From positions 49,818-113,817 of the forward strand of contig CAVPJI010000002.1 in assembly GCA_963705215.1 (NCBI GenBank): a DNA stretch of 64,000 nt. Reading direction: 5' to 3'. Each line of letters opens with the position of its first letter. Positions within the stretch are counted from its first letter, which is position 1. Made by a program: the position numbers and the translations under genes. The notes under the pieces are model-generated. The model made no database searches. It saw only the letters and a program-made list of their open reading frames with translations, and was not told where the DNA came from. Shown piece after piece: positions 5,779-63,855 of this stretch. This DNA is from an uncultured Chloroflexia bacterium (GTDB lineage Bacteria > Chloroflexota > Limnocylindria > Limnocylindrales > CSP1-4).

Positions 5779-5878
5779 CCGGCTGATGCTGCGCACGCGC
5801 ACGGCGAGCGCACCCGGTGACCCCACACGTCGGGCCACCACCTTGCCATACGCCCCAGCCGGTCGGAGCGGAGGAGTG

Positions 5879-6103
5879 GTGAAGCAGGTCGAGGAAGCCA
5901 GCTTCGTGGATCTGATCGCGTGCGAGCGCGATTGCCGTTCCTGCAGCTACGCCGCCGCGCTCGACTGCGACGGCAACTGCGGCGTCTGCGCGCACAACGC
6001 GTACTGCCCCTGCGTGAACCCCGTCGTCGCCCGGAGCAAGACGGCCCTGCGGCTGATCGAGCTCCGGCCGATCCTGCTCCAGGACGTTCGAGGCCGGATC
6101 TAG
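5879..6103 (+). CDS. small Cys-rich protein (8 Cys, two CX3CX2C motifs); alternative leaderless start at 5786
   Basis: MKQVEEASFVDLIACERDCRSCSYAAALDCDGNCGVCAHNAYCPC...; GGAGG upstream; stop TAG overlaps prfB GTG. Confidence 0.7.
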   Translation: MKQVEEASFVDLIACERDCRSCSYAAALDCDGNCGVCAHNAYCPCVNPVVARSKTALRLIELRPILLQDVRGRI

Positions 6104-8184: not shown

Positions 8185-8233
8185 GGCGGGCAACGGGACG
8201 GATCCCGGCCGCGGTGGTAGCCTCGGGCCGATC

Positions 8234-9004: not shown

Positions 9005-9013
9005 GGGGGTGAC

Positions 9014-9934: not shown

Positions 9935-10010
9935 GCCCGTGCGCTTGGCGGTCGATTCCGGCCTCCCGATGTACGCTTCCTCACGCCAGCGGCGCCCCGC
10001 AGACCCCCGG

Positions 10011-47196: not shown

Positions 47197-47922
47197 TTAC
47201 TCGCAGACGAGCGGCTTTGCGATCGGGTTGGCGGCCTTCGGGTCGGCCGGCCCGACGCTCAGCGGTCGAGCCACGACCATCATCACCAGGCCGGTGTAGC
47301 CGGGCAGGCCCTCCTTCGGCCCTTCCGACGTCTGGAGGACGAGCTGCTCCGCGGTCGCCCGGAAGGCGAAGTCGAGGCTGTCCTGGTTGCGCATGACCCG
47401 GGTGATCTCGTAGAGGAAGAGCTGGTTGTCGTTCGTGTACACCTGGACCAGCATCCCCACCATCTTCGTGTCCGCGGTCCGGAGCAGGGGCAGGAACATC
47501 CCCTCGCGGGCGTGGGCGGAGAGGTAGGTCGTGCCCGGGGAGCCCGGCTGCTTGAGCTGAGGGAGGTACTCGGCGACGTTGCAGTACGGGAAGTGGTCCG
47601 GATCCCCGGGGGGCCGCACCACGGGGAGGTCAATTCGCAGAGCCGGGACGACCACCCGGCTCGCCACGCGGGCCGCCGAGGCGCTCGCCGACGGCGCGGC
47701 CGACGCGGAGGGTGCCCCGGTGGGGAGCGGCGGGAGGCTCGGCCGGGGCGTCCGGGCGACAGGGCCGGAGGGCTCCGCGGATGGGGCTGCCGACGGTGCA
47801 AGCGCCACGGCCTGCGGGGCGTCCTGGTAGCTGAGCAGCCCGACCGTGAGCAGCACGACACCGGCCGCCGTCACGAGGGCGGGCAGCAGGCGGCGGGCGA
47901 TCCAGTCGAGGAGCGAGCGCAT
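47197..47922 (-). CDS. sortase-fold membrane protein with Cys-to-Ser change at catalytic position
   Basis: N-terminal TM, Pro/Ala linker, RVVVPALRIDLPV, TTYLSAH, LFLYEIT, LVLQTSEG (TLxTC equivalent). Confidence 0.7.
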   Translation of the reverse strand: MRSLLDWIARRLLPALVTAAGVVLLTVGLLSYQDAPQAVALAPSAAPSAEPSGPVARTPRPSLPPLPTGAPSASAAPSASASAARVASRVVVPALRIDLPVVRPPGDPDHFPYCNVAEYLPQLKQPGSPGTTYLSAHAREGMFLPLLRTADTKMVGMLVQVYTNDNQLFLYEITRVMRNQDSLDFAFRATAEQLVLQTSEGPKEGLPGYTGLVMMVVARPLSVGPADPKAANPIAKPLVCE

Positions 47923-48109
47923 CGGTGAAGGCATCCTAGCAAGGAGATCGGGTGAGGCCACCCGGCGGTTTGTCCGGTGCTGGGACGCCGGAGGTCCCGG
48001 ACCTGTTGCGGGGCTGGAGCACGGCCGGTGACGCGCCGCACAATCGGTCCGGGCGCCTCTACCGTGCCGCGCGCGCAGCGCCGGCGCGAGTGGGCTACGC
48101 TCCCCGCCG

Positions 48110-48787: not shown

Positions 48788-50263
48788 CTACGGCAGCGCC
48801 GCGCCCACCGCAGCGGCGGCCGAGCCGACCGCCTCGAGGAGCGGGCCCGGAAAGAGGCCCAGGAGAATCGTGCCCACGCCGGTGATCGTCAGCCCAACGC
48901 GGAGCAGCATCCCGTGGGCGACGGGCGTCGCGTCGCCCTGCGGCTCGCGCATGTACATGTAGACGATGACGCGCAGGTAGTAGAAGGCGGCCGCCGCGGC
49001 GTTGAGGACCGCGATCACCGCGAGCAGGGTCAGCCAGCCGCCGCCCTGGACCGCTGCCAGGATCACGTACGCCTTGCCGAAGAAGCCAGCCGTCGGCGGG
49101 ATCCCTGTCAGGGACAGCAGGAAGAGGACCATCAGGACCCCGAGGATCGGCTCGCGGCGGCCCAGGCCAGCGAACGTCTCGAGCCTGCTCGTCACGCCGG
49201 GGCGCTTCTGGAGCGCCGTGATGACGGCAAAGGCACCAAGGTTCATGAAGGTATAGGCGGCGGCGTAGAACAGGAGCCCTTCGAGGCCCTCGATCTGGCC
49301 CGCGGCGTACGCCGTGAGGCCCACCATCATGTAGCCGGTGTGGGCGATCGAGGAGTAGGCGAGCATTCGCTTCACGTTGTCCTGGGTGAGCGCGACGAGG
49401 TTGCCCAGGGTCATCGTGAAGGCCGCCAGGACGAAGAAGACGATGGCCCACTCGTCCTTCAGCGGTCCGAGCGCCTCGGCGAAGACCCGCAGGATCACCG
49501 CGAAGGCGCCGACCTTCGGCAGCACCGAGAGATAGCCCGTGATCGGCGTCGGCGAGCCCTGGTAGGCGTCGGGCGTCCAGTAGTGGAACGGGACGGCCGC
49601 AATCTTGAAGGCGACGCCGGTGGTCAGGAAGGCGAGGCCCAGGGCAAGGCCCGGCGAGAGGGCCGCCTGGCCTTCGACGATGGCCTCCAGCGCGGCAGCC
49701 ACGTCGCCGACCCGGGTGGAGCCGGTGAGCCCCCAGACGAAGGCCAGCCCGAAGAGAAAGATCGCGCTCGAGAACGAGCCGAGGAGGAAGTACTTGACCG
49801 CACCCTCCGTGGAGAGCGCGTCGCGCTTGTGGTAGCCGGCCAGCATGTAGCCGGGGATCACCATCAGCTCCAGGCCCAGGAAGAGCACCAGGAGATCGGC
49901 CGACGCCGCGATGAGCATCGCTCCCGCGAGGGCGAAGACCAGGATGACGGCGAACTCCGGCACGGGCAGCCCGCGCGCGGCGAGATACTCCGGCCCGAAG
50001 AGGATCGTGAGGGCCACGATCGCCACGAAGACGAGGTCGAGGAAGGTCGTCAGGTCGTCCACGCGGTAGGAGCCGCCGAAGGCGGTTCCGGGCGTTGCCC
50101 CGGCCCATGCGACGAGGGCTGCGACGACCGCCAGGCCCACCAGGCTCACCCCGATGGCGGCCCGTGCACTCGCCGGGGCGACGATGTCGGCCACGATGAT
50201 GAGCGCGGCGAGCAGGACGACCGCGACGAGCGGCGCGATGACGGCGAGGTCGGCAGTGGACAT
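48788..50263 (-). CDS. nuoN: NADH-quinone oxidoreductase subunit N
   Basis: LFLGLELM, EGAVKYFLLGS, FKIAAVPFHYWTPDAYQGSP, KRMLAYSSIAHTG, GIPPTAGFFGK. Confidence 0.95.
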   Translation of the reverse strand: MSTADLAVIAPLVAVVLLAALIIVADIVAPASARAAIGVSLVGLAVVAALVAWAGATPGTAFGGSYRVDDLTTFLDLVFVAIVALTILFGPEYLAARGLPVPEFAVILVFALAGAMLIAASADLLVLFLGLELMVIPGYMLAGYHKRDALSTEGAVKYFLLGSFSSAIFLFGLAFVWGLTGSTRVGDVAAALEAIVEGQAALSPGLALGLAFLTTGVAFKIAAVPFHYWTPDAYQGSPTPITGYLSVLPKVGAFAVILRVFAEALGPLKDEWAIVFFVLAAFTMTLGNLVALTQDNVKRMLAYSSIAHTGYMMVGLTAYAAGQIEGLEGLLFYAAAYTFMNLGAFAVITALQKRPGVTSRLETFAGLGRREPILGVLMVLFLLSLTGIPPTAGFFGKAYVILAAVQGGGWLTLLAVIAVLNAAAAAFYYLRVIVYMYMREPQGDATPVAHGMLLRVGLTITGVGTILLGLFPGPLLEAVGSAAAAVGAALP

Positions 50264-50277
50264 CGGCGGGGCTCCCG

Positions 50278-51822
50278 TCAGTTCCCGAGCGCCGTCGCGA
50301 GCGACGGGTCGACGGCGGCGAGCGCGGCCTTCACGGAGCCGGCGATGAGATCGAGCACCAGGCCGGGGAAGAGGCCGAAGATCACCGTGAGCGCGCCGAG
50401 CGGTGCCAGGGTCAGGATCTCCACCGGCCGCATGTCGGTCAGATGGTGCCCAAGCCCCTTCAGGAAGTCCGAGAGCGGCCCGAAGAGGACCCGCTGCTGC
50501 ATCCAGAGGAGGTAGGCGGCGGCGAGGATCATCACGAAGGTGATCATGACCGCCGTCCACGGGCTGAACGCGAACGTGCCCTGGAAGACGAGGAACTCCC
50601 CGACGAAGCCGGCCAGGCCGGGCAGGCCGACCGAGGCCAAGACGAAGAAGCCGAGCGCGGCCGAGAAGACCGGGACCGGAGCCCCGAGGCCGCCCATGTT
50701 CGCGATCGTCCGGTCGTGCGTCCGCTCGTAGATGACGCCGACGAGGATGAAGAGGGCCCCTGTGATCAGGCCGTGGTTGACCATCTGGAGGATCGCGCCC
50801 TGCATCCCCTGCTCCTGGAAGATGAAGATCCCCAGGGTCACGAAGCCCATGTGGCTGACCGAGCTGTAGGCCACCAGCTTCTTGAGGTCGGGCTGGACGA
50901 GGGCCACGATCGCGCCGTAGATGATGGCGATGACCGAGAGCACGATGATCAGGGGGGCGAAGGCCTGTGCCCCCTCCGGGAAGATCGGCAGGGCGAAGCG
51001 GATGAACCCGTAGGCGCCCAGCTTGAGGAGGACGCCGGCCAGGATCACCGATCCCGCCGTGGGTGCCTCCACGTGGGCATCGGGCAGCCAGGTGTGGAAC
51101 GGGAACATCGGGACCTTGATCGCGAACGCGAGCGCGAAGGCGGCGAACGCGAACAGCTGGAAGGTGCGGTCGAAGCCGTGGCCGGCCAGGTTCTGCAGGT
51201 CGAACGCCCCGTCCCAGCTGCCGGTCGCTGCCTGGTAGGTGAACGCCGTGGCCAGGATCGCCACGAGCATCAGGAGCGACCCCACCAGGGTGTAGAGGAC
51301 GAACTTGATCGTGGCGTAGATCCGGTTGACCCCGCCCCAGATCCCGATGATCAGGTACATCGGGACTAGGACGACTTCCCAGAAGATGTAGAAGAGGAAA
51401 AGGTCGAGCGACACGAAGACGCCCAGCATCCCGACCTCGAGGATCAGGAAGGCGATCATGTACTCCTTCACCCGCTCCTTGATCGGGGAGAAGCTGGCCA
51501 GGATGGAGATCCAGGTGAGGGTCGTGGTGAGGACGACCATCGCCACGGAGAGCCCGTCCACGCCGAGCTTGTACTGGATCCCGAAGAGGGGGATCCAGTC
51601 GAGCTGCTCCACGTACTGGAAGGCCAGCCCGGGGCCTGTCTCGCGCCCCGGCAGGTAGCCCAGGAGGAGCCACAGGCTGACGACCCATGCTGCCAGCGAG
51701 AAGACGAGCGCCGCGCCCCTGATCGCGCCCACGTTGCGGCGCGGGATGAGCGCCACGACGAGCGCGCCGACCAGCGGCAGGAAGGTGATGACGCTCAGGA
51801 TCGGGAAGTCGCCGATGTTCAT
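50278..51822 (-). CDS. nuoM: NADH-quinone oxidoreductase subunit M
   Basis: GVDGLS, FYIFWEVVLVPMY, AIKVPMFPFHTWLPDAHVEAPTAGS, KKLVAYSSVSHMG. Confidence 0.96.
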   Translation of the reverse strand: MNIGDFPILSVITFLPLVGALVVALIPRRNVGAIRGAALVFSLAAWVVSLWLLLGYLPGRETGPGLAFQYVEQLDWIPLFGIQYKLGVDGLSVAMVVLTTTLTWISILASFSPIKERVKEYMIAFLILEVGMLGVFVSLDLFLFYIFWEVVLVPMYLIIGIWGGVNRIYATIKFVLYTLVGSLLMLVAILATAFTYQAATGSWDGAFDLQNLAGHGFDRTFQLFAFAAFALAFAIKVPMFPFHTWLPDAHVEAPTAGSVILAGVLLKLGAYGFIRFALPIFPEGAQAFAPLIIVLSVIAIIYGAIVALVQPDLKKLVAYSSVSHMGFVTLGIFIFQEQGMQGAILQMVNHGLITGALFILVGVIYERTHDRTIANMGGLGAPVPVFSAALGFFVLASVGLPGLAGFVGEFLVFQGTFAFSPWTAVMITFVMILAAAYLLWMQQRVLFGPLSDFLKGLGHHLTDMRPVEILTLAPLGALTVIFGLFPGLVLDLIAGSVKAALAAVDPSLATALGN

Positions 51823-51833
51823 CGTCGTCCTCC

Positions 51834-53849
51834 CTACCTGGCCGCGATCGCGAGGTACGCGCCGGCCATGACGATCAGCCCGATCGCGATGCCCAGCGCG
51901 TAGTTCTGGACGCGCCCGGTCTGCACCCGGCGCAGGCCGCGGCCGGCATCAACCGTGAGGCGGCCCACCCCGTTCACCGTTCCGTCGACGACCGTCCGAT
52001 CGAACCACCACGTCACCGCCGCGACGCGGCCGCCGACGACGATGAACAGGAGGTGGTTCAGGTCATCGAACCACCACTTGTTGAGGCTGGCCCGGTAGAG
52101 GAAGCGGGTGGCGCCGTTGGCGTTCGTGATGGCCTGGACGCGCTCCGGGTGGCCGGCCCGGCGGAAGGCGCCGAAGAGCCAGATCCCGACGACGAGACCC
52201 ACCGTGGCGATGGCGACGCTGACGAGGATGAGGACGCCGTCGATGCCGAACAGCTCGTAGGCCGGCTTGTCCGGGTGGAGCATCTCCTCCGACTCGGCGA
52301 AGACCGGCTCCAGCCAGTGGGTGATCCGCGAATCGCCCAGCGGCGTGCCCAGGAAGGCGCCGAGGAGCGCCGACGGGATGGCCAGCAGGACCAGCGACAG
52401 GGTCATCGTCCACGCTGACTCGTGGATCTGATCCCAGATGCGGCGCACGTACGCCGACGGCTGCCCGTAGAACGTCTTGGCCATCAGGCGCCACATGTAG
52501 AAGGCGGTCATCCCGGCCACGACGAAGCCGATCGCCCAGACCCAGTAGAAGCCGAACTTGAAGCTCTCGGCGAGGATCTCGTCCTTGCTGAAGAAGCCCG
52601 CCAGCGGCGGGATCCCGGCAATCGCCAGCGTGCCAATGAGCATGGTCCAGTGGGTGACGGGGATCTTCCGGCGCAGCCCCCCCATGTTGTTCATGTCCTG
52701 CTCCTCGTGGACGGCGTGGATCACGCTGCCCGAGCCGAGGAAGAGGAGGCCCTTGAAGAACCCGTGGGCCATCAGGTGGAAGATCGCGGCCACGAAGGCG
52801 CCCACGCCGAGCGCGGCGAACATCAGGCCCAGCTGGGACAGGGTCGAGTAGGCCAGGACGCGTTTGATGTCGGTCTGGGTGAAGGCGATCGACGCCGCCA
52901 GGATCGAGGTGAAGATGCCGATCGCGGCCACCACGACCATGACACCCGGGGCCTCGGCGAAGATCGGGTTGGCCCGGGCGATGAGGTAGACGCCCGCGTT
53001 GACCATCGTCGCGGCATGGATGAGAGCCGAGACCGGGGTCGGGCCTTCCATCGCGTCGGGCAGCCAGACGTGGAGCGGGAACTGGGCGCTCTTGCCCACT
53101 GCGCCGCAGAAGACGAGAAACGCGATCGCGGCGATCGTCGCCTGGTCGAGCTCCGCGATCAGCTCGAACGACTCGCGGATGTCGAGCGTCCCGGTGCTGA
53201 CCCAGATGAGCATGATTCCCAGGGCGAACCCGACGTCGCCGACGCGGTTCACGATGAACGCCTTCTTGGCCGCGAGGGCGGCCGAGCGCCTCTGGTACCA
53301 GAACCCGATGAGGAGGTACGAGCTGAGGCCCACCAGCTCCCAGGCGGCGAAGACGGTCAGCCAGCTGTCGCCCAGGACGAGCAGGAGCATGCTGAACATG
53401 AAGAGGTTGAGGTAGGCGAAGAAGCGCCAGCGCCCCGGGTCGTGGGCCATGTAGCCCACCGAGTAGAGGTGGACGATCATGCCGATCGTCGTCACGACGA
53501 TGAGGAGGCAGGCCGTCAGCTGGTCCACGTAGAGACCCATCTCCACCTGGAAGGCCCCGGCCGGGATCCAGGTCCAGAGGGTGATCCCGGCCCCGTGCTC
53601 GCCGAGGCCGCCGCTGAGCGCCTCGTAGACGACCACCATCGCGATCGCCCAGGTGGCGACGATCAGGAGGAGCGGGACCAGGAAGGCGAAGCGCCCGATC
53701 CGGCGCCCGAAGAGCGCCGTGAAGACGAAGCCGGCAAGGGGCAGGACCAGCAGCAGCGGCACGAGGTTGATCACGCCCGCGGCGGCGCTCGACTCGGCCT
53801 CGGCGGCGGCGAGCAGGGGGGCGGCGTGCAGGGCCACGGATTCGAACAC
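51834..53849 (-). CDS. nuoL: NADH-quinone oxidoreductase subunit L
   Basis: YSVGYMAHD, KAFIVNRVGD, GKSAQFPLHVWLPDAMEGPTPVSALIHAATMV, IKRVLAYST. Confidence 0.96.
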   Translation of the reverse strand: MFESVALHAAPLLAAAEAESSAAAGVINLVPLLLVLPLAGFVFTALFGRRIGRFAFLVPLLLIVATWAIAMVVVYEALSGGLGEHGAGITLWTWIPAGAFQVEMGLYVDQLTACLLIVVTTIGMIVHLYSVGYMAHDPGRWRFFAYLNLFMFSMLLLVLGDSWLTVFAAWELVGLSSYLLIGFWYQRRSAALAAKKAFIVNRVGDVGFALGIMLIWVSTGTLDIRESFELIAELDQATIAAIAFLVFCGAVGKSAQFPLHVWLPDAMEGPTPVSALIHAATMVNAGVYLIARANPIFAEAPGVMVVVAAIGIFTSILAASIAFTQTDIKRVLAYSTLSQLGLMFAALGVGAFVAAIFHLMAHGFFKGLLFLGSGSVIHAVHEEQDMNNMGGLRRKIPVTHWTMLIGTLAIAGIPPLAGFFSKDEILAESFKFGFYWVWAIGFVVAGMTAFYMWRLMAKTFYGQPSAYVRRIWDQIHESAWTMTLSLVLLAIPSALLGAFLGTPLGDSRITHWLEPVFAESEEMLHPDKPAYELFGIDGVLILVSVAIATVGLVVGIWLFGAFRRAGHPERVQAITNANGATRFLYRASLNKWWFDDLNHLLFIVVGGRVAAVTWWFDRTVVDGTVNGVGRLTVDAGRGLRRVQTGRVQNYALGIAIGLIVMAGAYLAIAAR

Positions 53850-53874
53850 GCGGGTCTCTCGGGCTCCTCGCGGG

Positions 53875-54186
53875 CTACTGGCGCATGGCGTCGTACTCGT
53901 CGACGAGCGGCGTCCGCCGGTTGCGGTAGATCGCCAAGACGATGGCGAGGCCGACGGTCGCCTCGGCCGCGGCCACCGCCATCACCATGAGGGCGATCAC
54001 CGAGGCGTCGACGTTGAGCTCCGGCACGAAGGCGCCGAAGGCGACGATGGCGAGGTTGACGGCGTTGAGCATCAGCTCGATCGACATGAGCATGCTGATC
54101 GCGTTGCGCCGGGCCAGGAAGCCGAAGCTCCCCACGGCGAAGAGGATGCCGGCAAGGATGAGATAGGCGTCGAGCGACTGGCTCAC
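53875..54186 (-). CDS. nuoK: NADH-quinone oxidoreductase subunit K
   Basis: [26 protein letters not shown]; GTGA overlap with nuoJ. Confidence 0.95.
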
Positions 54187-54716
54187 GCGTCCCGGTCCTC
54201 CCGCTTCGCGAGGAAGACGCTGCCGATGACGGCCGCCAGCAGGAGCACGCTCACGACCTCGAACGGCAGGATGTACTCGTTGAAGAGGAGGCGCGCCAGG
54301 GCGTCGGTGGCGGTCGCGAGCCGGGTGCTTACGTCGCCCCAGTCGGTGGATACGACCGCCAGGGCCACGATGACCGCGATCACGACCGCTGCGATCGCCG
54401 CGGGGACCGCCTGGGTCTGGAAGACGAGGCGAGCCGGCGCGCTCTTGGCCTGGGTCAGCATGACCGCGAAGAGGATGAGGACGGCGATCGCCCCGATATA
54501 GATGAGGACCTGGGCAGCGGCCACGAGCGGCGCACCGAGCATGACGTAGATGCCGGCCAGGGCGCCGAACGCGACGATCATCGCGATCCCGCAACGGATG
54601 ATGTCGCGCAGGGTGACGACCAGCAGGGCACTGCCCAGGAGGATGCCCGCGAGGACGACGAAGAGGACGTCGTTCCAGCTGATCCCCAGGAGCGGCACGG
54701 TGTCCGGGATTGCCAC
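54183..54716 (-). CDS. nuoJ: NADH-quinone oxidoreductase subunit J
   Basis: [37 protein letters not shown]. Confidence 0.95.
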
Positions 54717-54728
54717 CTCTCGCCTCGC

Positions 54729-57377
54729 TCAGTCGGTGCCGTGGGAGGATGGCGCGTGCGTGGTGTCGTGCGCCGTGTCGTGCGCCCCGCCGCCTTGGCC
54801 ATGGCCGTGGTGCCCGGAGCCGTTCCCGTTCCCGCTGCCGCCCGCGATCGACGCCGGGAGGACGGGCAGCATGCGCGGCCCGATGTCACGCCCCGCGGCG
54901 AGCGCCCGCTCGGCCCAGTCGGGCTCGCGCCGGATGTAGGTCATCTCCGTCTCGCGGTCCACGGCCGCGATCGCGATGAGGTCGATCATCGGCTCTTCGC
55001 GGCTCGTGTGGGCCAGCTCGAAGTCCGGGCCGCAGCGGAGCGCGTCGTAGGGGCAGGCGTCCACGCAGATGCCGCACAGGATGCAGCGGCTCTCGTCCAC
55101 CTCGTACTTCTCGAGGATCCGCGGCTTGGGCATGAGGGCGCCCGTTGGGCATGTCTCGGCGCACCGGCCGCACGAGACGCAGGGCGTGTCGTTGAGGCTC
55201 ATGTCGAGTGGCGTCGTGACCAGCGTGTCGAAGCCGATCCGCATGAAGTCGTAGCACGCCGCGCCCACCACCTCCGCGCACACGTTCGCGCAGCGGCCAC
55301 AGTCGATGCAGCGCGAAGGCTCGCGCAGGATGAAGGCGTGGCTGTCGTCGCGGAGGTAGTCGTGGTTGGTGCCGGTGAAGCGGTTCTCGGTGACGCTGCG
55401 GAAGCCGGCCCCGCGGTTGTTCTGCGGCTCCAGCGTGCGCAGGGTCGTCCCATACTCGATGCCCAGGCGGCGCAGGTCGCAGAACCCGATCGCCTCGCAG
55501 GTGCACTGGAGGCAGCGCGTGCTCTCCGCGACCGCCGCCTCGCGGCTGTACGGGATCTCGTACTCGATGTACGAGTCGCGCCGCGCCTCGCCGGGCATGC
55601 TGGAGAGGCGGTGCCGGGATTCCTTGACCTCGGAGGTGAAGGGGACGATGGAGAGGAATTCCGGCTGCGGCTCGGCCAGCGTCTGGCGGGTTCGGATCGC
55701 CGCCAGGTCCAGGCCCTGCAGGAAGGCGTCGACGGCGTACGCGGCACGCCGGCCGTCGGCGATCGCCTGGACGACCGTGGCGGCGCCGGTGCGGACGTCG
55801 CCCGTCCCGAAGATGCCGGGCCGGCCCGTCTCGAACGTAACCGGATCCACCTTGAGGCGCCACTGCTTCGTCTTCTCCAGCCCCGCGTTGCCGCCCCCGA
55901 GCCAGGTCAGGTCCGGCCCCTGGCCGATGGCGAGGAGGACGCGGTCGCACTCGATGACGAACTCGGTCCCGGCCGCCGGTTCGGGGCGCCGGCGGCCCGA
56001 GGCGTCGGGAGCGCCGAGCTGCATCCGGATGAACTCCACGCCGGAGACCTTGCCGGTCGCCTCGTCCACCAGGACGCGGGTCGGGCCGGCCTGGAAGATC
56101 ATGGTGACGCCTTCCTCGATCGCCTCGTGGACCTCGCTGGACGCCGGCATGTCCTTCATGTCACGGCGGTAGACGAGCGTCACCTCGTCGGCGTGCTGGC
56201 GGACCGACGTCCGCGAGCAGTCCATCGCGGTGAAGCCGCCGCCGATCACGACGACGCGGGTGCCGGCGTGGCCCGGGTAGGTCAGGCCGAGGGTGGCGAT
56301 CTTGAGGTACTCGAGCCCGTCGATGACGCCGTCGGCGTCCTCGCTGGGGATTCCCAGCTTGTTCGTGTCGTAGCAGCCGATGGCGACCACGACCGCGTCG
56401 AACCCCTGGTTCTGCAGGTCATCGAGGCTGAAGTCGCGCCCCAGCGCCTGGCCGCACACGAAGCGCCCGCCCAGGCGGGTGACGCTCTCGTACTCGGGGT
56501 CGAGGACGCGTTCCTTCGGCAGGCGGTACTCGGGGATGCCGTAGCGGAGCATGCCGCCGGGGGCCTCGTCGCGCTCGAGGATCGTGACGTCGTGACCCGC
56601 GATCAGGAGGTAGTAGGCAGCCGACGCGCCGGCCGGCCCGGAGCCGATCACTGCCACACGCTTGCCCGTCTTCGGCTGCAGCTCGAAGGGGAGCGGCGGG
56701 TCGATGTCCTGCTCGCGCATCTCCCGCAGGACCTGGTCGCCGGCGTAGCGGTGGCTGTCGCGGATCGCGATCGCCTCGTCCACCTCGTCGCGGCGGCAGT
56801 GCTCCTCGCAGGGCGCCGGGCAGACGCGGCCCAGGATCGAGGGGAAGGGGATCGTCCGCTTGAAGATGCGGGCCGACTCGCGGAACTCGCCCTCGGCGTT
56901 CGCCTTGAGGAAGCCCGGAATGTCGATGTGGCTGGGGCACTTGTTCTGGCAGGGCGGGAGGCAGTACGCGTTGTGGTCGGAGAAGATCAGCTCCAGGTTC
57001 GTCCGCCGGATCCGCCGGATCTCCTCGGTCTGGGTCCGCACCACCATCCCGGCCTCGGCCGCGCGCGAGCACGAGATGGGCGGATGCTCCTCGCCTTCCA
57101 CCTCCACCACGCACATCCGGCAGGCGCCGAAGCCGGGCAGCTTGGGCTCGTAGCAGAGGGTCGGGATCTCGATCCCGTTGTCGCGGCAGACTTCCAGGAT
57201 CGTCTGTCCCTCGCGGCCCTCGACGAGCCGCCCGTCGACCTCGAGCCGGATTGCGGGAGTCGACTGCGGCCGCTGGGGCGCCTGCGTCCGGAAGAGGCGC
57301 TCGGCGAGGCTGTCGACGGCCGGCTCGGGGCTGGTCGGCGGGGCGATGTCGGCGGGGCGCGAGATCAGGTCGGCCAT
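54729..57377 (-). CDS. fusion: NuoG-type 2Fe-2S + GltD-like flavin/NAD(P)H domain + NuoG-type 4Fe-4S clusters + C-terminal half of NuoI
   Basis: PTLCYEP...GACRMCVVE...ISC; [18 protein letters not shown]; GSGPAG; [11 protein letters not shown]; RCLQCTC..CDL; [11 protein letters not shown]; [12 protein letters not shown]; [30 protein letters not shown]. Confidence 0.85.
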
Positions 57378-57391
57378 CGTTCGGTCGTCGC

Positions 57392-58771
57392 CTACCTTCC
57401 GGCGGCGGCGGCTGGCAGCCGGATCGGGCTGCAGACGCCGGCGGGGCAGACGCCCCGGAGGATGTGGTCGTCGATCTCGGGACCGAAGTATCGCATCGCG
57501 GTCCGGAGGGGACCGGACGCCAGCCGCTCGTGGTCGCACAGGGCGCTCGCGGCGCAGTCGTCGGCAAGCTCCGCGAGCAGCTTCGGGTCGCCGGGGAGGG
57601 CCGTGCCCTCGACGTAGCGCTGGCCGATCTCGGCGAGGCGGCGCAGGCCGATCCGGCAGGGGATCGTCTTGCCGCAGGCCTCGTCAGCCCCGAAGCGGAC
57701 CAGCAGCCGCGCCAGGTCCACGACGCAGGCGCGCTCGTCGGCGATCACGACGGCGCCCGACCCGACGTGGGCGCCGGTCGCGCGGAGCGCGTCGAACGAG
57801 TAGGGCGTGTCGAGCAGCTCTTCCGGCAGGAGGCCGCCGGTCGGGCCGCCGACGAGGGCCGCCTTGAACGTGTGCCCGGCGGCCACGCCACCGGCCAGGT
57901 CCACGAGATCGCGGAGCGTGGTCCCGGTCGCGACCTCGACGATCCCGGGGTTCGCGACCGCGCCGGATACTCCCACGAGGACGGTGCCCGGGGCGTCGGG
58001 GTCGCCGATGGCTCGGAACGCGTCAGCACCGTTGGTGACGATCCAGGGCAGCGACGCGAGGGTGGCCACGTTGTGGACGAGGGTGGGGCGGCCCCACAGG
58101 CCGCGCTCGGCGGGATACGGCGGGCGCTGCTCGGGCTGCCCTCGGCGCCCTTCGAGGGCGGCGATGAGGACCGTCTCCTCGCCCAGCATGTACGCGCCCT
58201 GCACCGTGCGGACCGTGACGGCGACGTCGCGGCCGGAGCGCAGGATGTCCCGGCCAAGGAACCCGGCCTCTTCGGCGGCGAAGACGGCCGCCTCCAGGGC
58301 CGCCACCGCGTCGGCGTACTCGGCCCGGACCGCGATGATCGCCTGGCGCGCGCCGACCGCGAGGGCCGCGATCGCGATCCCTTCCACCACGGCAAAGGGG
58401 CGTGCCTGCATGAGGACCCGGTTAGTGGCCTGGGCCGGGTCCGCCTCGTACCCGTTGCCCACGACGTACCGGACCGGGTCGGCGGCACCTGCGACGGCCC
58501 GCCACTTGGCGCCCGCCGGGTAGCCGGCCCCGCCCCGGCCGCGCAGGCCGGACGCGACGATCGTGAGCAGGGTGCCGGTGGGCCCCAGGTTGCCGACCAC
58601 GGAGCGAAGCGCGGCGAACGCGCCGCCCGCAACCGCGGCCGCGAGGTCCGGCGCGCGGTCGGGCGCGCCGTCGGGCGCGCCGTCGGGCGCGCGGTCGGGC
58701 GCGATCGTCGCCACGGCGTCGCCCAGGATCGGGCGGGGCTGGCCGGCCGGACTCGTGAGGATCGTCGTCAT
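57392..58771 (-). CDS. nuoF: NuoF/HydB-like FMN flavoprotein with degenerate Fe-S motif
   Basis: SGLRGRGGAGYP, GAYMLGEETVL, GLWGRPTLVHNVATL, VGGPTGG, EACGKTIPCRIG, HILRGVCPAGVC. Confidence 0.85.
   Translation of the reverse strand: MTTILTSPAGQPRPILGDAVATIAPDRAPDGAPDGAPDRAPDLAAAVAGGAFAALRSVVGNLGPTGTLLTIVASGLRGRGGAGYPAGAKWRAVAGAADPVRYVVGNGYEADPAQATNRVLMQARPFAVVEGIAIAALAVGARQAIIAVRAEYADAVAALEAAVFAAEEAGFLGRDILRSGRDVAVTVRTVQGAYMLGEETVLIAALEGRRGQPEQRPPYPAERGLWGRPTLVHNVATLASLPWIVTNGADAFRAIGDPDAPGTVLVGVSGAVANPGIVEVATGTTLRDLVDLAGGVAAGHTFKAALVGGPTGGLLPEELLDTPYSFDALRATGAHVGSGAVVIADERACVVDLARLLVRFGADEACGKTIPCRIGLRRLAEIGQRYVEGTALPGDPKLLAELADDCAASALCDHERLASGPLRTAMRYFGPEIDDHILRGVCPAGVCSPIRLPAAAAGR
58648..58703 (-). 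repeat. 12-bp coding tandem repeat (PDRA/PDGA) near NuoF N-terminus
   Basis: GTCGGGCGCGC(C/G) units on + strand encoding PDRAPDGAPDGAPDRAPD. Confidence 0.8.
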
Positions 58772-58775
58772 CGGT

Positions 58776-59609
58776 TCAGTGGACCGTGCGGGTGGCCGGG
58801 TGCTCCCCGGCAAGCGCCTGGGCCCAGGCGGTGGCATTCGCGGTCGTCACTTCCGGCTGGACCTCGCCGTCGAGGGCCACGAGCGGGGCGGCCGCGCCGG
58901 GCGGGTGCGTCGGCAGCCACGCGTAGCGGATCCGGCCGTCGGGCGTGGGCCGGCCAAGCTCCGTCCGGAGGCCTGCGCCGATCGCGTCCGCAAGCCGACC
59001 ACCGCCGGCCATGAGGCAGGCCGTGCAGCGGCAGACGGCAACCTCCTCCACGGCCCGCTCGAGCCGGAGGTGGCGGTAGTAGCTGGCGGTGCCGTAGATC
59101 ATCGCGTACCAGGCGCCCGTCCGGTGGCTGATCCGCTTGAGCGCCGCGATCGGCAGGTGCCCGCACTCGGCCTGGACCGCCTCGAGGATCGAGAGCATCT
59201 GGTGGGGGTCGTGGTCGTGCGCCTCGAGGATCGCGTCGATCACCGCCAGGTCGACGGATTCGAAGTGCGCGTACAGCTCATCCGGAACCTCGCGCCCGGC
59301 GCGGCGGAGCGCCGATTCAGTGCGCCGCTCGCCGTACGTCTCGGCTGCGCCCCAGTGGACCGCATAGCGGCCCTTCGTGTCCCGGCCGCCCATGTCGATG
59401 CACTCGATCGGGCAGGCCTGGGCGCACTGGAAGCAGGTCTCGCACTTGAGCGTGCCGTGCTCGTCGTACAGGAGCTGGAGCCGCCCGCGGTACTTCACCG
59501 CGATGTCCGGGTCCACCTCGGGGTACTTGATCGTGAGCGGGGGCTGGAAGAAGCGGCGCATGGTGAGGGCCATCCCCTTGACCAGCCCGAGACCAGGGAT
59601 GCTGCTCAT
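58776..59609 (-). CDS. fusion: N-terminal half of NuoI + NuoE-like domain with degenerate 2Fe-2S site
   Basis: GMALTMRRFF..TIKYPE..YRGRLQL..KCETCFQCAQACPIECI (single motif), then ILEAVQAECGHLP, YGTASYY, VCRCTACLMAG, TPDGRI. Confidence 0.85.
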   Translation of the reverse strand: MSSIPGLGLVKGMALTMRRFFQPPLTIKYPEVDPDIAVKYRGRLQLLYDEHGTLKCETCFQCAQACPIECIDMGGRDTKGRYAVHWGAAETYGERRTESALRRAGREVPDELYAHFESVDLAVIDAILEAHDHDPHQMLSILEAVQAECGHLPIAALKRISHRTGAWYAMIYGTASYYRHLRLERAVEEVAVCRCTACLMAGGGRLADAIGAGLRTELGRPTPDGRIRYAWLPTHPPGAAAPLVALDGEVQPEVTTANATAWAQALAGEHPATRTVH

Positions 59610-59619
59610 CGCCGCCTCC

Positions 59620-60963
59620 TCACCCGTTGGCCAGGATCGAGACCGCCATGGCGGTCGCGAAGATGTTGAGGAGGGCGGCCGGCAGGAGCCACTTCCAGGC
59701 GAAGCCCATGAGCTGGTCCACCCGGACCCGCGGGAACGTTGCCCGCATCTGGACGAAGACGATGACGAAGAGGTAGCTCTTGGCCATCATCCAGAAGAGC
59801 CCGGCGACCCAGTCGAGGCTGATGAACGCCCAGCCCAGGAGGGCGCCGACCGCCAGGACGTTGAAGAGGATGAAGCCGATAGCGAGCGCCTGGAGGGTCG
59901 AGACGCGCGAGGAGCCGAGCCAGAAGGGCAGGGCAAGAAGGAGGGTTCCCAGCAACGGGACCAGTGCCACGTAGAAGAGGAGGCCCAGCCCCAGGCTCCC
60001 CGGGTCGAGGTTCAGCTCGATCGCGAAGGGCCAGTCGAACGGAGCGTTCCAGCCGCCGAAGAAGAGGACGGCGATCATCGCCGACATCACGAACACGTTG
60101 ACGTACTCGGCGAAGAAGAAGAAGCCGAAGCGCATCCCGGAGTACTCGGTGGCGAAGCCGGCCACGATCTCCTGGTCGGCCTCGGTCATGTCGAGCGGGG
60201 TCCGGTTCGTCTCGGCGATGCCGGCGATGAAGAAGATGAGCAGGCCCAGCGGCTGCTTGAAGACGTTCCAATCCAGGACCGAGCCGGCCTGCTGCTCCAC
60301 GATGGAATTCAGGCTCAGCGTGCCGGCCAGGATGATGATGCCCACCACCGAGAGGGTGAGCGGGATCTCGTAGCTGATCGCCTGGGCCGCCGCGCGCAGC
60401 GCCCCGAGGAGGCTGTACTTGTTGAAGCTGGCCCAGCCGGCCATCATCAGGCCGACGACGTTCAGGCCGCCGATCGCGAAGAAGTAGAGCAGGGCGATAT
60501 TGAAGTCCTGCGCCACGAGGCCGGGCGCGAACGGGATCACGAGGAAGCTCATGATCGTCGCGAGGAAGACGGCGACCGGGGCGACCGTGAAGATCGGGAC
60601 GTCCACGCCGCGCGGGGTGTAGTCCTCCTTCGCGAGCACCTTCAGGCCGTGGACCACGCTCATCGCGAGCCCGAAGGGCCCCACCCGGTCCGGCCCCACC
60701 CGGAGGTTCATCCGCGCGATCACCTTGAGCTCGAGCAGGATGATCAGGAAGGCCGTGGGGATCGTCATCACGATCACGACCGTCGCGGCGACGATGAAGC
60801 GCACCAGGTCCGGGTTCGCGGCCAGGAAGTCGAGGAGCGGGGGCACGAGCAGGGCGATGGCGACCGTGGCCACGCCTCCCAGCACGAGGAGCGTCGGCAG
60901 GCCGACCAGGACGACTCGCGACGGGATAGAGAGCCGGTTCCAGTAGGACGTCACGGCGGTCAT
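59620..60963 (-). CDS. nuoH: NADH-quinone oxidoreductase subunit H (with extra hydrophobic insertion)
   Basis: RVGPDRVGPFG, LAKED, KYSLLGALRAAAQAISYE, AETNRTPLDMTEADQEIVAGFATEYSG, ATFPRVRVDQLM. Confidence 0.95.
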   Translation of the reverse strand: MTAVTSYWNRLSIPSRVVLVGLPTLLVLGGVATVAIALLVPPLLDFLAANPDLVRFIVAATVVIVMTIPTAFLIILLELKVIARMNLRVGPDRVGPFGLAMSVVHGLKVLAKEDYTPRGVDVPIFTVAPVAVFLATIMSFLVIPFAPGLVAQDFNIALLYFFAIGGLNVVGLMMAGWASFNKYSLLGALRAAAQAISYEIPLTLSVVGIIILAGTLSLNSIVEQQAGSVLDWNVFKQPLGLLIFFIAGIAETNRTPLDMTEADQEIVAGFATEYSGMRFGFFFFAEYVNVFVMSAMIAVLFFGGWNAPFDWPFAIELNLDPGSLGLGLLFYVALVPLLGTLLLALPFWLGSSRVSTLQALAIGFILFNVLAVGALLGWAFISLDWVAGLFWMMAKSYLFVIVFVQMRATFPRVRVDQLMGFAWKWLLPAALLNIFATAMAVSILANG

Positions 60964-60976
60964 CGGCGGACGGCCT

Positions 60977-62191
60977 TCACTTGTCCACCCCGCCCATGAC
61001 CGGGTCGAGCGAGGCCATGATCGCCATCGTGTCCGGGATGAGGTTGCCCGGCATGAGCAGGCTCATCAGCTGGAGGTGGAGGAAGCTGGGGTCGTGGATC
61101 CGCATCCGGAAGGGCTGGTCCGTGCCGTCGCTGATCACGTAGGTGGAGTACTGTCCGCGCGGCGCCTCCACCGCGGCAAAGGCGCGGCCGGGACGCGGCC
61201 GCAAGAGCCGCGGCAGCCGCGCCGAGACGGGCCCGTCGGGCATCTGGTGGAGGCACTGGTCGATGATCCGCAGGCTCTGGCGCACCTCGTCCATCCGGAG
61301 CAGGTAGCGGGCCAGCGAATCGCCCTCGCTCCGCGTCGGGATGTCGAAGTCGAGCTCCGGGTAGACGCTGTACGGGTGGGCCCGGCGGAGGTCGAAGGGG
61401 ACGCCCGACGCCCGCAGGTTCGGGCCGCTCACGCACATCCGGAGGGCCGTCTCGCGATCGATCACGCCCATGCCCCGGGCGCGCCGGACGAAGATCTCGT
61501 TCTCGTTGAGGAGGCCCATGCCGGCCTCGACCTGCCCGCCGGCGCGGCTCATCCAGTCGCCCAGGCGGCTCATGAACTCGTGGTTCAGGTCGCCGTTGAC
61601 GCCGCCGATCCGGAAGTAGTTGAAAAGGAGCTTCTGGCCGGTCAGGGCGGCCAGCATCTCCATGATCTCGTCGCGCTCGGCAAAGCTCCACAGGATCGGG
61701 GTGATCCCGCCAAGGTCCAGGGCGAACCAGCCCATGTAGAGCATGTGGCTCGCCACCCGGTTGAGCTCGGCGGAGAGGACCCGGATGTACTCGGCGCGCC
61801 GCGGCACCTCGAGGTCCAGGAGCTTCTCGAAGGAGAGGACCGCCCCCCACTCGTTGAAGAGCGAGCTGATGTACTCGAGGGGGTCCACCTGGCTGATGAC
61901 CTGGTGGTAGTCGGCGTTCTCGCAGAGCTTCTCGACGCCGCGATGGAGATAGCCCAGCACGGGGTCCAGGTCGGTGACCTGCTCGCCGTTGATCTTGAGG
62001 ATCACCCGCAGCACGCCGTGGGTGGACGGATGCTGCGGCCCCATGTTGAGGAGCATCTCGCCGTCCTTGAGGGCGAGGAACTCCCGCTGGCGCTCGGTCC
62101 GGGCGAGCGGGATCGGGTCGAAGATGCCGGCGTGGTCGACCGGGATCGTGAGCGCCGGGTCGTCGAGGCTGGGCCGCGTCGGGGTCGTCAT
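60977..62191 (-). CDS. nuoD: NADH-quinone oxidoreductase subunit D
   Basis: NMGPQHPSTHGVLR, GYLHRGVEK, YFRIGGV, VEAPRG, RMRIHDPSF. Confidence 0.96.
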   Translation of the reverse strand: MTTPTRPSLDDPALTIPVDHAGIFDPIPLARTERQREFLALKDGEMLLNMGPQHPSTHGVLRVILKINGEQVTDLDPVLGYLHRGVEKLCENADYHQVISQVDPLEYISSLFNEWGAVLSFEKLLDLEVPRRAEYIRVLSAELNRVASHMLYMGWFALDLGGITPILWSFAERDEIMEMLAALTGQKLLFNYFRIGGVNGDLNHEFMSRLGDWMSRAGGQVEAGMGLLNENEIFVRRARGMGVIDRETALRMCVSGPNLRASGVPFDLRRAHPYSVYPELDFDIPTRSEGDSLARYLLRMDEVRQSLRIIDQCLHQMPDGPVSARLPRLLRPRPGRAFAAVEAPRGQYSTYVISDGTDQPFRMRIHDPSFLHLQLMSLLMPGNLIPDTMAIMASLDPVMGGVDK

Positions 62192-62201
62192 GTCCTCTCG
62201 C

Positions 62202-62753
62202 CTACGCCCCGGGCGTCGTGCGGCGCAGGGTGGTCTCGTCGGCGTCCTTCGGAGCGACCGCCCGCTCCATCGGCCGGATGCCGCCGCCCGGCGAGCGCGC
62301 GGCGTCGTCGGCGAGGTGGAAGTCCTTGCGCAGCGGGAAGCTCACGAAGTCGTCCGGCAGGTAGATGCGCCGGAGGTCGCGGTTCCCCTCGAAGACGAGG
62401 CCGAACATGTCGTAGGCCTCGCGCTCCATCCACTCGGCTCCCTTCCACAGGAAGGTGAGCGAGGGAACGCGCGGCTCCTCGCGGGGGATCTCGTCCACGA
62501 CGACCCGCAGCCAGTCGGGGGTCACGTCGCTCCACAGGTGGTAGACCACCTGGAACGTCGTCCCGGTGTCAACGCCGCACAGGTCGGCGAGATATTCGAA
62601 GCGCAGGTCCGGCTCGTCGTGCAGGGTCCGCATGACCTGGGGCAGGTCGCCCGGCCGGATCCGGATCTCGGTCTGGTCCTGGCGCTGGCGGACGGGGCCC
62701 TCCATCGAGGATCCCAGCTTCCGCTCCAGGAGCGCCTTGAGCGCACGGTCCAC
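62202..62753 (-). CDS. nuoC: NADH-quinone oxidoreductase subunit C
   Basis: FEYLADLCGVD, AEWMEREAYDMFG, DLRRI, FPLRKDF. Confidence 0.94.
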   Translation of the reverse strand: MDRALKALLERKLGSSMEGPVRQRQDQTEIRIRPGDLPQVMRTLHDEPDLRFEYLADLCGVDTGTTFQVVYHLWSDVTPDWLRVVVDEIPREEPRVPSLTFLWKGAEWMEREAYDMFGLVFEGNRDLRRIYLPDDFVSFPLRKDFHLADDAARSPGGGIRPMERAVAPKDADETTLRRTTPGA

Positions 62754-62755
62754 GG

Positions 62756-63508
62756 TCAGATCCCCTCCGGAACCGTGGGGCCGATGTTGCGCTCGGGCCA
62801 GTGTCCGCGGCGGTCGCGGACGAGGTGCTGGAGCTTCATCATCCCGTAGATGAGGCCCTCGGGGCGGGGCGGGCAGCCGGGGATGTAGACGTCCACGGGG
62901 AGGACCCGATCGATCCCCTGGATCGTGCTGTAGCTCCGCTTGTAACGGCCCCCGGAGCAGGTGCAGTCGCCCATCGCGACCACCCACTTCGGCTCCGGCA
63001 TCTCCTCCCAGAGCCGGATGAGCGGCTCGGCCATCTTCGTCGTCAGGGTGCCGGCCACGATCAGCACGTCGGCCTGGCGGGGCGAGGCCCGGAACGGGAA
63101 CATGCCCCAGCGATCGATGTCGTTGCGGCTCGTCGCGGTCGACATCATCTCGATCGCACAGCAGGCCAGCCCGGAGAGGAGCGGCCAGAGACTGTTGAGA
63201 CGGATCAGATCCAGGACGTAGTCGGCCTTCGTGGGGACCACGTCGAGGGCGCCCCAGCGGCCGTCATTCCTGCGCCCCTCGCCGGTCTCGTCGTAGCGCT
63301 TGAGGGCGAGCGTCGGCGCCTCGTCGAGAGGAACGCCGTCGTAGGCCTCGCTGTCGGCCGGCGTCCAGAGCATGTTCGGGACGACGACCGGCTCGGCGAC
63401 CGCGTCGGCCGCAGTCGTGGCCGGGATGGGAAGGCGGCTGCCGGGCGTGCCGGGCGGCGGGCCGCCGGCGGGCGGGGTGCTGTCGGCTGGCGGCGGGGTC
63501 AGCGCCAC
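62756..63508 (-). CDS. nuoB: NADH-quinone oxidoreductase subunit B (Pro-rich N-terminal extension)
   Basis: [38 protein letters not shown]. Confidence 0.95.
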
Positions 63509-63855
63509 GTCAGCACTCCCTTGCGCCACGCGTAGGCCAGCCCCAGGAGCAGGATGCCGACGAAGATCATCATCGAGGCCATCAGGCCCGGGATCGGGTC
63601 GCGCACGACGAGCGCCCACAGGAAGATGAAGACGACCTCGATGTCGAAGGCGACGAAGAGCAGCGCGTAGATGTAGTACGAAACGCCGAACCGCCCATGG
63701 GTGTCGCCGTAGGTCGGAATGCCGCTCTCGTACGGGAGCCCCTTGAGCGGGCTCCCCTTCGTGCGGTGGCTGATCAGCCACGAAGCGCCGATCGTCAGGA
63801 AGACGAACGTGACGCCCGCGAAGGCGAAGCCGACGACGTACCAGATGCCTTCCAT
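63499..63855 (-). CDS. nuoA: NADH-quinone oxidoreductase subunit A
   Basis: [34 protein letters not shown]; SD GAGGTG. Confidence 0.95.

Follow-up and report, generated by a model that had tools for sequence, protein, structure and literature searches.

A complex I operon of Limnocylindria with NuoI in two halves, fused to the ends of a Stn/Nfn-type flavoprotein module

NuoI (TYKY/NDUFS8) is among the most conserved subunits of respiratory complex I and the sole electron bridge from the input module to cluster N2. It carries the clusters N6a and N6b in a 2[4Fe-4S] ferredoxin fold, and in such folds each cluster is held by three cysteines of one motif and a single cysteine of the other. Complex I occurs with alternative input modules, for example in the 11-subunit NDH-1 of cyanobacteria and chloroplasts, in Fpo with FpoF, and in the Nuo complexes of Campylobacter and Helicobacter in which NuoE and NuoF are replaced. 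To our knowledge, all of these variants keep NuoI (NdhI, FpoI) as a single chain, and their input module is a separate, non-covalent partner. In such variants it is the input module that is exchanged while the Q and P modules stay (PMC3144371). Here we describe a 13-gene minus-strand operon, nuoA-B-C-D-H-X-F-Y-J-K-L-M-N, that shares with these variants the conserved Q and P modules and the exchanged input module. It occupies positions 48788-63855 of a stretch of 64,000 nucleotides (hereafter the window) from a metagenome-assembled genome (MAG) of an uncultured Chloroflexota bacterium of the class Limnocylindria. We use X, F and Y for the three proteins encoded between nuoH and nuoJ; X and Y each carry one half of NuoI.

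Two other described systems come close to this locus. The first is the Nfn-Bfu group of soluble, electron-bifurcating transhydrogenases, which includes StnABC and NfnABC (PDB 8oh5, 9n5u and 9bov; PMC10482914, PMC12018979). In StnC, FAD and NADPH are bound by a GltD-like domain that passes electrons into a linear wire of clusters, and the C-terminal FdhF-like domain is a dead end for electron transfer (PMC10482914). Bifurcation by the Bfu enzymes requires a NuoE-type [2Fe-2S] cluster, the ferredoxin domain of the B subunit and an AFM motif (PMC12018979). The second is a set of mbx-like operons, in some of which a gltD-related flavoprotein is said to substitute for NuoI as the acceptor (NADP+) site (Degli Esposti 2015, PMC4758237). 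This remark is the nearest published hint that we found, and it concerns a different arrangement. Like the locus described here, the mbx-like operons have a GltD-type NAD(P)H flavoprotein on a complex-I-related membrane module at the position of NuoI; unlike them, as far as a comparison by description goes, the present locus is a bona fide nuo operon that retains both halves of NuoI, each joined to the module by fusion. Literature searches returned no published description of a split NuoI or of such an operon, in agreement with an earlier note on this DNA, made from the sequence alone, whose author knew of none.

The two NuoI segments are exactly complementary on the NuoI model TIGR01971. Residues 12-76 of X match model positions 1-64 of 121 (46.8 bits, E 1.9e-12), and residues 753-798 of Y match positions 71-116, the whole protein scoring 53.5 bits (E 1.6e-14). 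The half in X comprises the amphipathic N-terminus, the elements TIKYPE and YRGR, and the first cysteine motif (motif 1, C56-x2-C59-x2-C62-x3-C66-P, nucleotides 59409-59444), whose four cysteines are invariant among 94 homologues. The half in Y contains the second motif (motif c, C765/768/771/775-P, nucleotides 55050-55085), which is also invariant, and the two motifs lie about 4.3 kb apart on separate proteins. When X 1-80 and Y 754-839 were joined in silico, the product matched TIGR01971 without interruption over positions 1-116 of 121 (100.4 bits, E 4.7e-29) and aligned end to end with plant TYKY (7ar7_I, E 7.5e-23), and also with Paracoccus NuoI (8qby_I). In the alignments to solved NuoI/TYKY chains all eight cysteines are in register, as are the flanking elements YP(E), RG, CP..AI, RYDID..C and GP.FE.A. 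The joint shows a gap of only two residues, and the break thus lies at the tip of the inter-motif loop. The eight cluster cysteines and the NuoI-specific N- and C-terminal elements are all there, spread over two chains; neither chain is a single-chain NuoI with two CxxCxxCxxxCP motifs.

Much of this had been anticipated in the earlier note, which proposed the gene calls and the limits of X and Y, a NuoI-like start of X that passes into a NuoE-type fold, the missing C-terminal half of NuoI at the end of Y, and one unpaired CxxCxxCxxxCP motif in each of the two proteins. Each of these points stands, the NuoE-type part of X being a thioredoxin-like [2Fe-2S] domain at residues 124-261, and the junctions that the note placed near 59370 and 55140 agree with the boundaries given by the hidden Markov models. 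Its view that Y has a pair of NuoG-type motifs of its own is also correct. These two motifs, a (C690/693/696/700) and b (C733/736/739/743-P), are both invariant, lie in a NuoG/HydA/StnC ferredoxin-like domain (Fer4_Nqo3) and align column by column with 9bov_A and 8oh5_C. With motifs a and b taken up by this Nqo3/HydA/StnC domain, only motif 1 in X and motif c in Y are left unpaired.

The material between the NuoI halves is a Stn/Nfn-type module. The earlier note had postulated the insertion of a NuoE-NuoF-NuoG module into the inter-motif loop of nuoI; the position in the loop holds, but the module is of the Stn/Nfn-Bfu type and not a true NuoEFG. All three proteins score far below the cut-offs of the corresponding complex I models: X reaches 40-42 bits with NuoE (cut-offs 141-142), F 358.5 bits with NuoF (558.65) and Y 95.8 bits with NuoG (470). 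In the PDB, X and Y match 9bov best, the E-like domain of X finding 9bov_C and 8oh5_A (StnA), and Y 43-774 finding 9bov_A (1e-157), StnC (8oh5_C, 1e-139) and NfnA (9n5u_A, 2e-138). F is a NuoF/StnB/HydB-like flavoprotein core (Complex1_51K, SLBB and NADH_4Fe-4S domains) for which HydB (7q4w_B) scores level with 9bov_B at E ~1e-105 and StnB and NfnB follow at ~1e-101, compared with 2e-82 for the best NuoF in the PDB (8e9g_F). As in StnABC and NfnABC, three corresponding proteins occur in the order A-B-C. As in StnC and NfnA, Y 43-774 combines a [2Fe-2S] domain, a GltD insertion and the ferredoxin-like domain with motifs a and b. In the insertion, Fer4_20 accounts for two [4Fe-4S] sites, GSGPAG marks the FAD site and GGGFTAMD ... 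VYRR the NAD(P)H site. All cofactor motifs checked in Y ([2Fe-2S], GltD clusters, FAD, NADPH VYRR, a, b and c) are at least 90% conserved.

The module differs from the soluble enzymes in several respects. Homology of Y to StnC and 9bov_A stops at about chain residue 700 of ~1175, and the NuoI C-terminal half then follows, beginning 20 residues past motif b, in place of the FdhF-like C-terminal domain of StnC. F has neither the N-terminal [2Fe-2S] (or Zn) thioredoxin-like domain nor the C-terminal 2x[4Fe-4S] ferredoxin domain of the Bfu B subunits: its alignments to these chains, which are 584-602 residues long, start at about residue 117-138 and stop at about 525-540, and F terminates some 10 residues past CPAGVC. 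The X-F-Y module is also membrane-bound through the NuoI fusion, and its genes lie inside a nuo operon. We propose that a three-gene operon of the Stn/Nfn-Bfu type was inserted in frame into the inter-motif loop of nuoI. X would then consist of the N-terminal half of NuoI and an E-like domain, and Y of a StnC-like protein and the C-terminal half of NuoI, which would have taken the place of the terminal formate-dehydrogenase-like domain of StnC. X, F and Y follow one another as the Stn subunits A-B-C do (E-like, F-like, G/GltD-like), an order consistent with a single in-frame insertion of the whole operon.

The rest of the operon is that of an ordinary complex I. Compared with the canonical NDH-1 of Thermus thermophilus (Nqo1-15), Paracoccus, E. 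coli and Mycobacterium smegmatis, ten of the 11 core Q- and P-module subunits are single genes in the usual order. As in those enzymes, NuoB carries the N2 cysteines including GCPP and NuoD lacks the NiFe cysteines, its C-terminus reading DPVMGGVDK (both read by eye, using family knowledge), and all NuoI elements with their eight cysteines are present. Unlike in those enzymes, NuoI is made of two polypeptides, the N module lies between nuoH and nuoJ, inside nuoI, and is not orthologous to NuoEFG, and the counterpart of NuoG, protein Y, has a GltD flavoprotein insertion and lacks the molybdopterin-like domain. Functionally the system is a complex I, which lacks two features that define the canonical enzyme, a NuoI of one chain and orthologues of NuoEFG.

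The complementary NuoI halves, fused to the ends of the Stn/Nfn-type module, replace the intact protein throughout the class. NuoI above the curated cut-off was found nowhere in the window's genome and in 0 of 41 relatives, and a closed chromosome of 3.68 Mb and three near-closed genomes likewise have none; in its place each genome shows a pair of half-matches about 4.3 kb apart. Closed and near-complete relatives thereby rule out for themselves an intact nuoI elsewhere, which the earlier note had named as an objection. Among 301 evenly sampled Chloroflexota genomes, each at least 85% complete, NuoI exceeds the cut-off in 205, and a NuoI-type match at E<=1e-20 is present in 243. The split-type N-terminal half (E<=1e-25) occurs in 35 genomes, which take in every sampled member of the Limnocylindria (families f1, f2 and f3), and the overlap of these 35 with the 243 is zero. 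An exhaustive phmmer search with X 1-115 returned about 58 split-type representatives, below which only ordinary NuoI ranked; they form one sequence family, the one named cluster of which is Candidatus Limnocylindria. Gene order is identical (A-B-C-D-H-X-F-Y-J-K-L-M) in all 52 loci with full flanks, drawn from independent projects with short and with long reads, which answers the synteny check that had been suggested, and it is the same in the two loci of the divergent family f3 (L101, G053:C2:603000-618000, and L102, G066). Compared with f3, Y is 58-60% identical, F 48% and X 37%. Y keeps its cofactor motifs in that family; X has Ala for C70 and lacks H235.

In principle the split could be mimicked by misassembly, by a pseudogene with a frameshift or by a contig of chimeric origin. 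The genome is a MAG, and some related loci from long reads have frame breaks (L101). Set against this, full-length X homologues are present in 39 of 40 related genomes, with reading frames intact in nearly all. At least 579 stretches that encode relatives of X turned up when species-representative genomes were scanned by pattern; the best 80 of these are all from Chloroflexota, many of them labelled Limnocylindria, Limnocylindrales or Limnocylindrus, and the stretches come from unrelated projects on peat, fen, permafrost, glacier, lakes and Danish soils, with short and with long reads. Together with the invariant gene order, short gaps of 4-14 nucleotides between genes (4 from the X stop to the ATG of F, 14 from the F stop to the ATG of Y) and dN/dS values far below 1, this leaves an artefact with practically no weight. 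Misassembly, which the earlier note had raised as a possible refutation, is excluded because the architecture is kept across hundreds of independent assemblies. The frame breaks themselves (several in L101, in nuoH, F and Y, and one in L102, in Y) are likely assembly errors. F and Y are separate open reading frames in 68 of 70 loci; in the other two (L045 and L060) they share one open frame, which could reflect a true but rare fusion or an erroneous frameshift in a long-read assembly. A fusion of F and Y as the norm was rejected, since the long open frames seen in relatives are high-GC read-through in another frame.

Three candidates for a spare nuoI were dismissed. The NuoI-like match at C6:43350-43547 of the window's genome belongs to an unrelated Fe-S protein of 491 residues beside a TetR-like gene. 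NuoI-like proteins of 145 or 157 residues occur in some genomes of the same genus. The 145-residue protein of G005 sits in a separate cluster (L103, G005:C8:587000-599000, open reading frames at 5798-10927 on the minus strand) with NuoD/NiFe-hydrogenase-like, NuoH-like and NuoL-like genes, which is probably a membrane-bound hydrogenase-type complex of group 4 and was not found in the window's genome. The 114-residue match in the closed genome G041 is a small ferredoxin without complex I neighbours.

All parts of X, F and Y are under purifying selection and none is decaying. By the Nei-Gojobori method, against eight relatives, the ratio of non-synonymous to synonymous substitution rates (dN/dS) is 0.06-0.12 for Y residues 1-745 and 0.04-0.13 for its NuoI C-terminal half, 0.11-0.23 for the N-terminal half of X and 0.11-0.22 for its E-like domain, and 0.18-0.22 for F, compared with 0.08-0.31 for NuoB, D, H and J.

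How might the two halves work together? Residues ~45-80 of X and ~753-800 of Y would co-fold into a normal 2x[4Fe-4S] ferredoxin fold, and we strongly infer that N6a and N6b are ligated in trans by X and Y, each cluster by both chains, because each draws 3+1 cysteines from the two motifs. Such ligation would lock the input module onto the Q module. An AlphaFold2 (AF2) model of X alone is suggestive in this respect: the E-like domain is predicted with local confidence (pLDDT) mostly above 90, and residues 23-115, which include the NuoI half and the most conserved segment, have values of 39-60 with a low-confidence helix at 89-103, as would fit a segment that needs its partners in order to fold. 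The invariant columns of X fall mostly in the N-terminal half and in the linker at 81-110, a highly conserved stretch to which nothing in NuoI or NuoE corresponds (W86, G87, E90, E94, R95, R96, E98, R102, R103, G105 and P109 are invariant). The AF2 model of Y, from an alignment of 38 sequences, was too poor to tell the pairing of its motifs (mean pLDDT 48.5, all Fe-S regions below 50).

Electrons would most likely enter as NADPH at the FAD of the GltD-like domain of Y, by homology to the solved StnABC and NfnABC structures. From there they would pass through the two [4Fe-4S] clusters of the GltD insertion to the NuoG-like clusters of Y (a and b), to N6a/N6b, to N2 of NuoB and on to quinone, the reduction of which would drive a normal proton-pumping membrane arm. 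F probably still binds FMN and NADH, and oxidation of NADH at this FMN is plausible as a second entry, if unsure. Its standing is less certain because the FMN pocket and the N3-type cluster are altered. One wire would join both flavins, and non-energy-linked transhydrogenation between NADPH and NAD+ is therefore conceivable.

We consider it probable that the operon encodes, as a whole, a functional 13-gene respiratory complex I with a NuoI made from two polypeptides. A number of observations weigh against this reading. The window's genome is a MAG that is 81% complete, although the closed relatives agree with it. The joined NuoI falls 13 bits short of the curated TIGR01971 cut-off of 113.05, and only 20 residues separate motif b from motif c in Y, as in a classical 2[4Fe-4S] ferredoxin, with Fer4_7 covering residues 733-779. 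X retains two of the four canonical NuoE cluster cysteines; the second CxxxC pair is absent, and the conserved cysteines of the domain are C193, C195 and C198, to which H235 is added in f1 and f2. In the N3/B1 motif of F (ACGKTIPCRIG), the middle cysteine is replaced by Thr in 54 and by Ser in two of 56 sequences from f1 and f2, and by Ala in f3, and Tyr stands in place of the conserved Asp in the NADE motif. In f3 the flavin-pocket residues of F are altered further (NLIG, GAAALVAGEET), and CGKAVPC and LCHLES are found there as well. Finally, NADPH specificity and cofactor content rest on homology.

The spacing of motifs b and c bears on a different pairing, in which Y alone would form a NuoI-like ferredoxin from b and c, leaving motif a of Y and motif 1 of X as orphans or in separate, non-canonical clusters, with X as a mere anchor. 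The distance of 20 residues is typical of clostridial ferredoxins, and both Fer4_7 and Fer4_9 span Y 733-779. However, this pairing would leave two invariant four-cysteine motifs without partners and would break up a domain, a+b, that aligns column by column not only with StnC and 9bov_A but with HydA and the NuoG domain too. Nor does a mere anchor sit well with the NuoI-specific N-terminal elements and four invariant cysteines of X, or with the full eight-cysteine NuoI alignment that X and Y reproduce when joined. We therefore think it very improbable that Y makes a ferredoxin of this kind without X.

The altered sites in X and F bear on what the module does. Since X, F and Y are each closest to bifurcating Bfu enzymes, and a cluster wire would connect the NADPH, NAD(H) and quinone sites, the complex could be a membrane-coupled bifurcating or confurcating transhydrogenase that keeps the flavin bifurcation of Stn and Nfn, with quinone replacing ferredoxin as one branch. 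However, the elements on which bifurcation depends according to PMC12018979 are missing or altered. The NuoE-type cluster is short of two ligands, the B-subunit ferredoxin domain and N-terminal domain are absent from F, the AFM motif is gone and replaced by variable residues, the GAF loop reads GAY, as in NuoF, and the flavin-proximal Asp is Tyr. Bifurcation of this kind is thus very improbable; with the two [2Fe-2S] ligands, the ferredoxin domain and the AFM motif missing, the branch through which the ancestral module bifurcated electrons and reduced ferredoxin appears to be gone.

A reading that asks for less of F is that the complex oxidises NADPH only. The E-like domain of X and F would then be catalytically dead assembly scaffolds, and all electrons would enter at the FAD of Y. 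The class-wide loss of the middle N3/B1 cysteine, the Tyr in the NADE motif and the rebuilt pocket of f3, where GAY...GEET has become GAAALVAGEET and NADE has become NLIG, are what such a reading would predict, as is the missing second cysteine pair of the E-like domain, which in f3-type proteins no longer matches PF01257. It would also account for Y being the most constrained of the three, both in dN/dS and in identity to f3. On the other hand, purifying selection on F is as strong as on NuoH and NuoJ, and in f1 and f2 F keeps near-invariant GRGGAG..KW, GEET (with the NADH-selecting Glu) and GGPTGG motifs, three of the four cluster cysteines and an LCDHER motif; the Zn-hinge motif H...CPAGVC is kept as well. 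Speculatively, LCDHER could supply a replacement His ligand for the cluster. An enzyme confined to NADPH is thus unlikely in our view, though it deserves to be kept in mind. F is the sole NuoF homologue in a streamlined 1.2-Mb relative (G025, 93% complete). The window's genome has two further NuoF-like genes (G000:C6:29567-30763 and G000:C17:17851-19032), with 471 and 442 bits to TIGR01959, both below the cut-off; near the first lie a NuoE-like match (C6:31447-31782) and several Fe-S proteins, and the two genes probably belong to soluble NAD-linked formate dehydrogenase or hydrogenase-type modules.

Returning to the reading of a two-chain NuoI within a functional complex I, we tentatively put forward a fuller account, in which a transhydrogenase operon was spliced into nuoI, N6a and N6b became two-chain clusters, and the complex came to oxidise NADPH directly, alone or with NADH, coupled to proton pumping, its input module stemming from an event independent of the one behind the classical NuoEFG; this is possible rather than probable. 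If NADPH does enter at the GltD-like FAD, the enzyme would be a proton-pumping NADPH:quinone oxidoreductase, and we know of no description of one. A two-chain NuoI would mean that a 2x[4Fe-4S] ferredoxin fold can withstand being split at the inter-motif loop, and that insertion of genes, and not only docking, can attach a new input module, which bears on the modular evolution of complex I. Limnocylindria, an abundant class in soil and freshwater, would run a previously unrecognised form of complex I, and, should NADPH indeed enter there, models of redox balance and energy yield would change for a class common in soils, peat, permafrost and lakes. Database annotations of X homologues read 'NADH:ubiquinone oxidoreductase subunit E', 'formate dehydrogenase subunit gamma' or 'NAD(P)H-dependent oxidoreductase subunit E', and their precomputed Pfam match is PF01257 only, with the NuoI half unannotated. 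With X labelled in this way, metabolic reconstructions may score such genomes as lacking NuoI.

The features of the operon are collected in Table 1. All ten ordinary subunits (A, B, C, D, H, J, K, L, M and N) match their own Pfam families, and the membrane-arm genes A, H, J, K, L, M and N stand together in the one operon with Pfam E-values of 8.7e-25 or better.

Table 1. Genes of the operon and segments of X and Y, with window coordinates and the match or alignment that defines them
Feature	Window coordinates	Strand	Match or evidence
nuoA	63499..63855	-	PF00507, E 3.9e-29
nuoB (start approximate)	62756..63496	-	PF01058, E 1e-28; N2-cluster cysteines in translation
nuoC (start approximate)	62202..62780	-	PF00329, E 7.6e-40
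nuoD	60977..62191	-	PF00346, E 7.8e-84
nuoH	59620..60963	-	PF00146, E 7.9e-103
X, 277 residues	58776-59609	-	
X 1-80, NuoI N-terminal half	59370..59609	-	TIGR01971 positions 1-64; aligns to TYKY and Paracoccus NuoI
X 81-120, family-specific linker RY.VHWG..ETYGERR.ESALRR.GR.VPD	59250..59369	-	Conservation among homologues
X 121-277 and stop, NuoE/StnA-like thioredoxin-like domain	58776..59249	-	PF01257 (X 124-261), E 1.8e-17
F, 459 residues	57392-58771	-	
Y, 882 residues	54729-57377	-	
Y 42-117, NuoG/HydA-type [2Fe-2S] domain	57027..57254	-	PF13510, E 3.7e-20; cysteines at least 90% conserved
Y 133-560, GltD/NfnB-type insertion	55698..56981	-	PF14691, PF07992; PRK12814, 566 bits
Y 683-748, ferredoxin-like domain	55134..55331	-	PF22117 Fer4_Nqo3, positions 4-66 of 67
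Y 753-800, NuoI C-terminal half	54978..55121	-	TIGR01971 positions 71-116; aligns to TYKY
Y 801-882 and stop, C-terminal extension	54729..54977	-	Partly conserved to ~841
nuoJ	54183..54716	-	PF00499, E 6e-32
nuoK (start approximate)	53875..54180	-	PF00420, E 8.7e-25
nuoL	51834..53849	-	PF00361, PF00662, PF01010
nuoM	50278..51822	-	PF00361, E 4.8e-78
nuoN (start approximate)	48788..50281	-	PF00361, E 5.6e-71

No promoter-like sites internal to the X-F-Y region were found, and terminator-like sites are no more frequent in the region than in shuffled sequence. The non-conserved N-terminal leader of F contains a 12-nucleotide tandem repeat of 5.7 copies (window 58636-58703), which encodes APDRAPDGAPDGAPDRAPD and looks like a lineage-specific low-complexity expansion. 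The tail of Y beyond residue ~841 (window 54732-54850) is Gly/His-rich, lineage-specific and not conserved in relatives, and may possibly bind metal; a 12-nucleotide repeat lies within its coding region at 54755-54786. Beyond the 3' end of nuoN lie a gene for a CorA-type Mg2+ transporter (45857-47128, plus strand) and a sortase-domain gene (47197-47961, minus strand), which appear unrelated to the operon.

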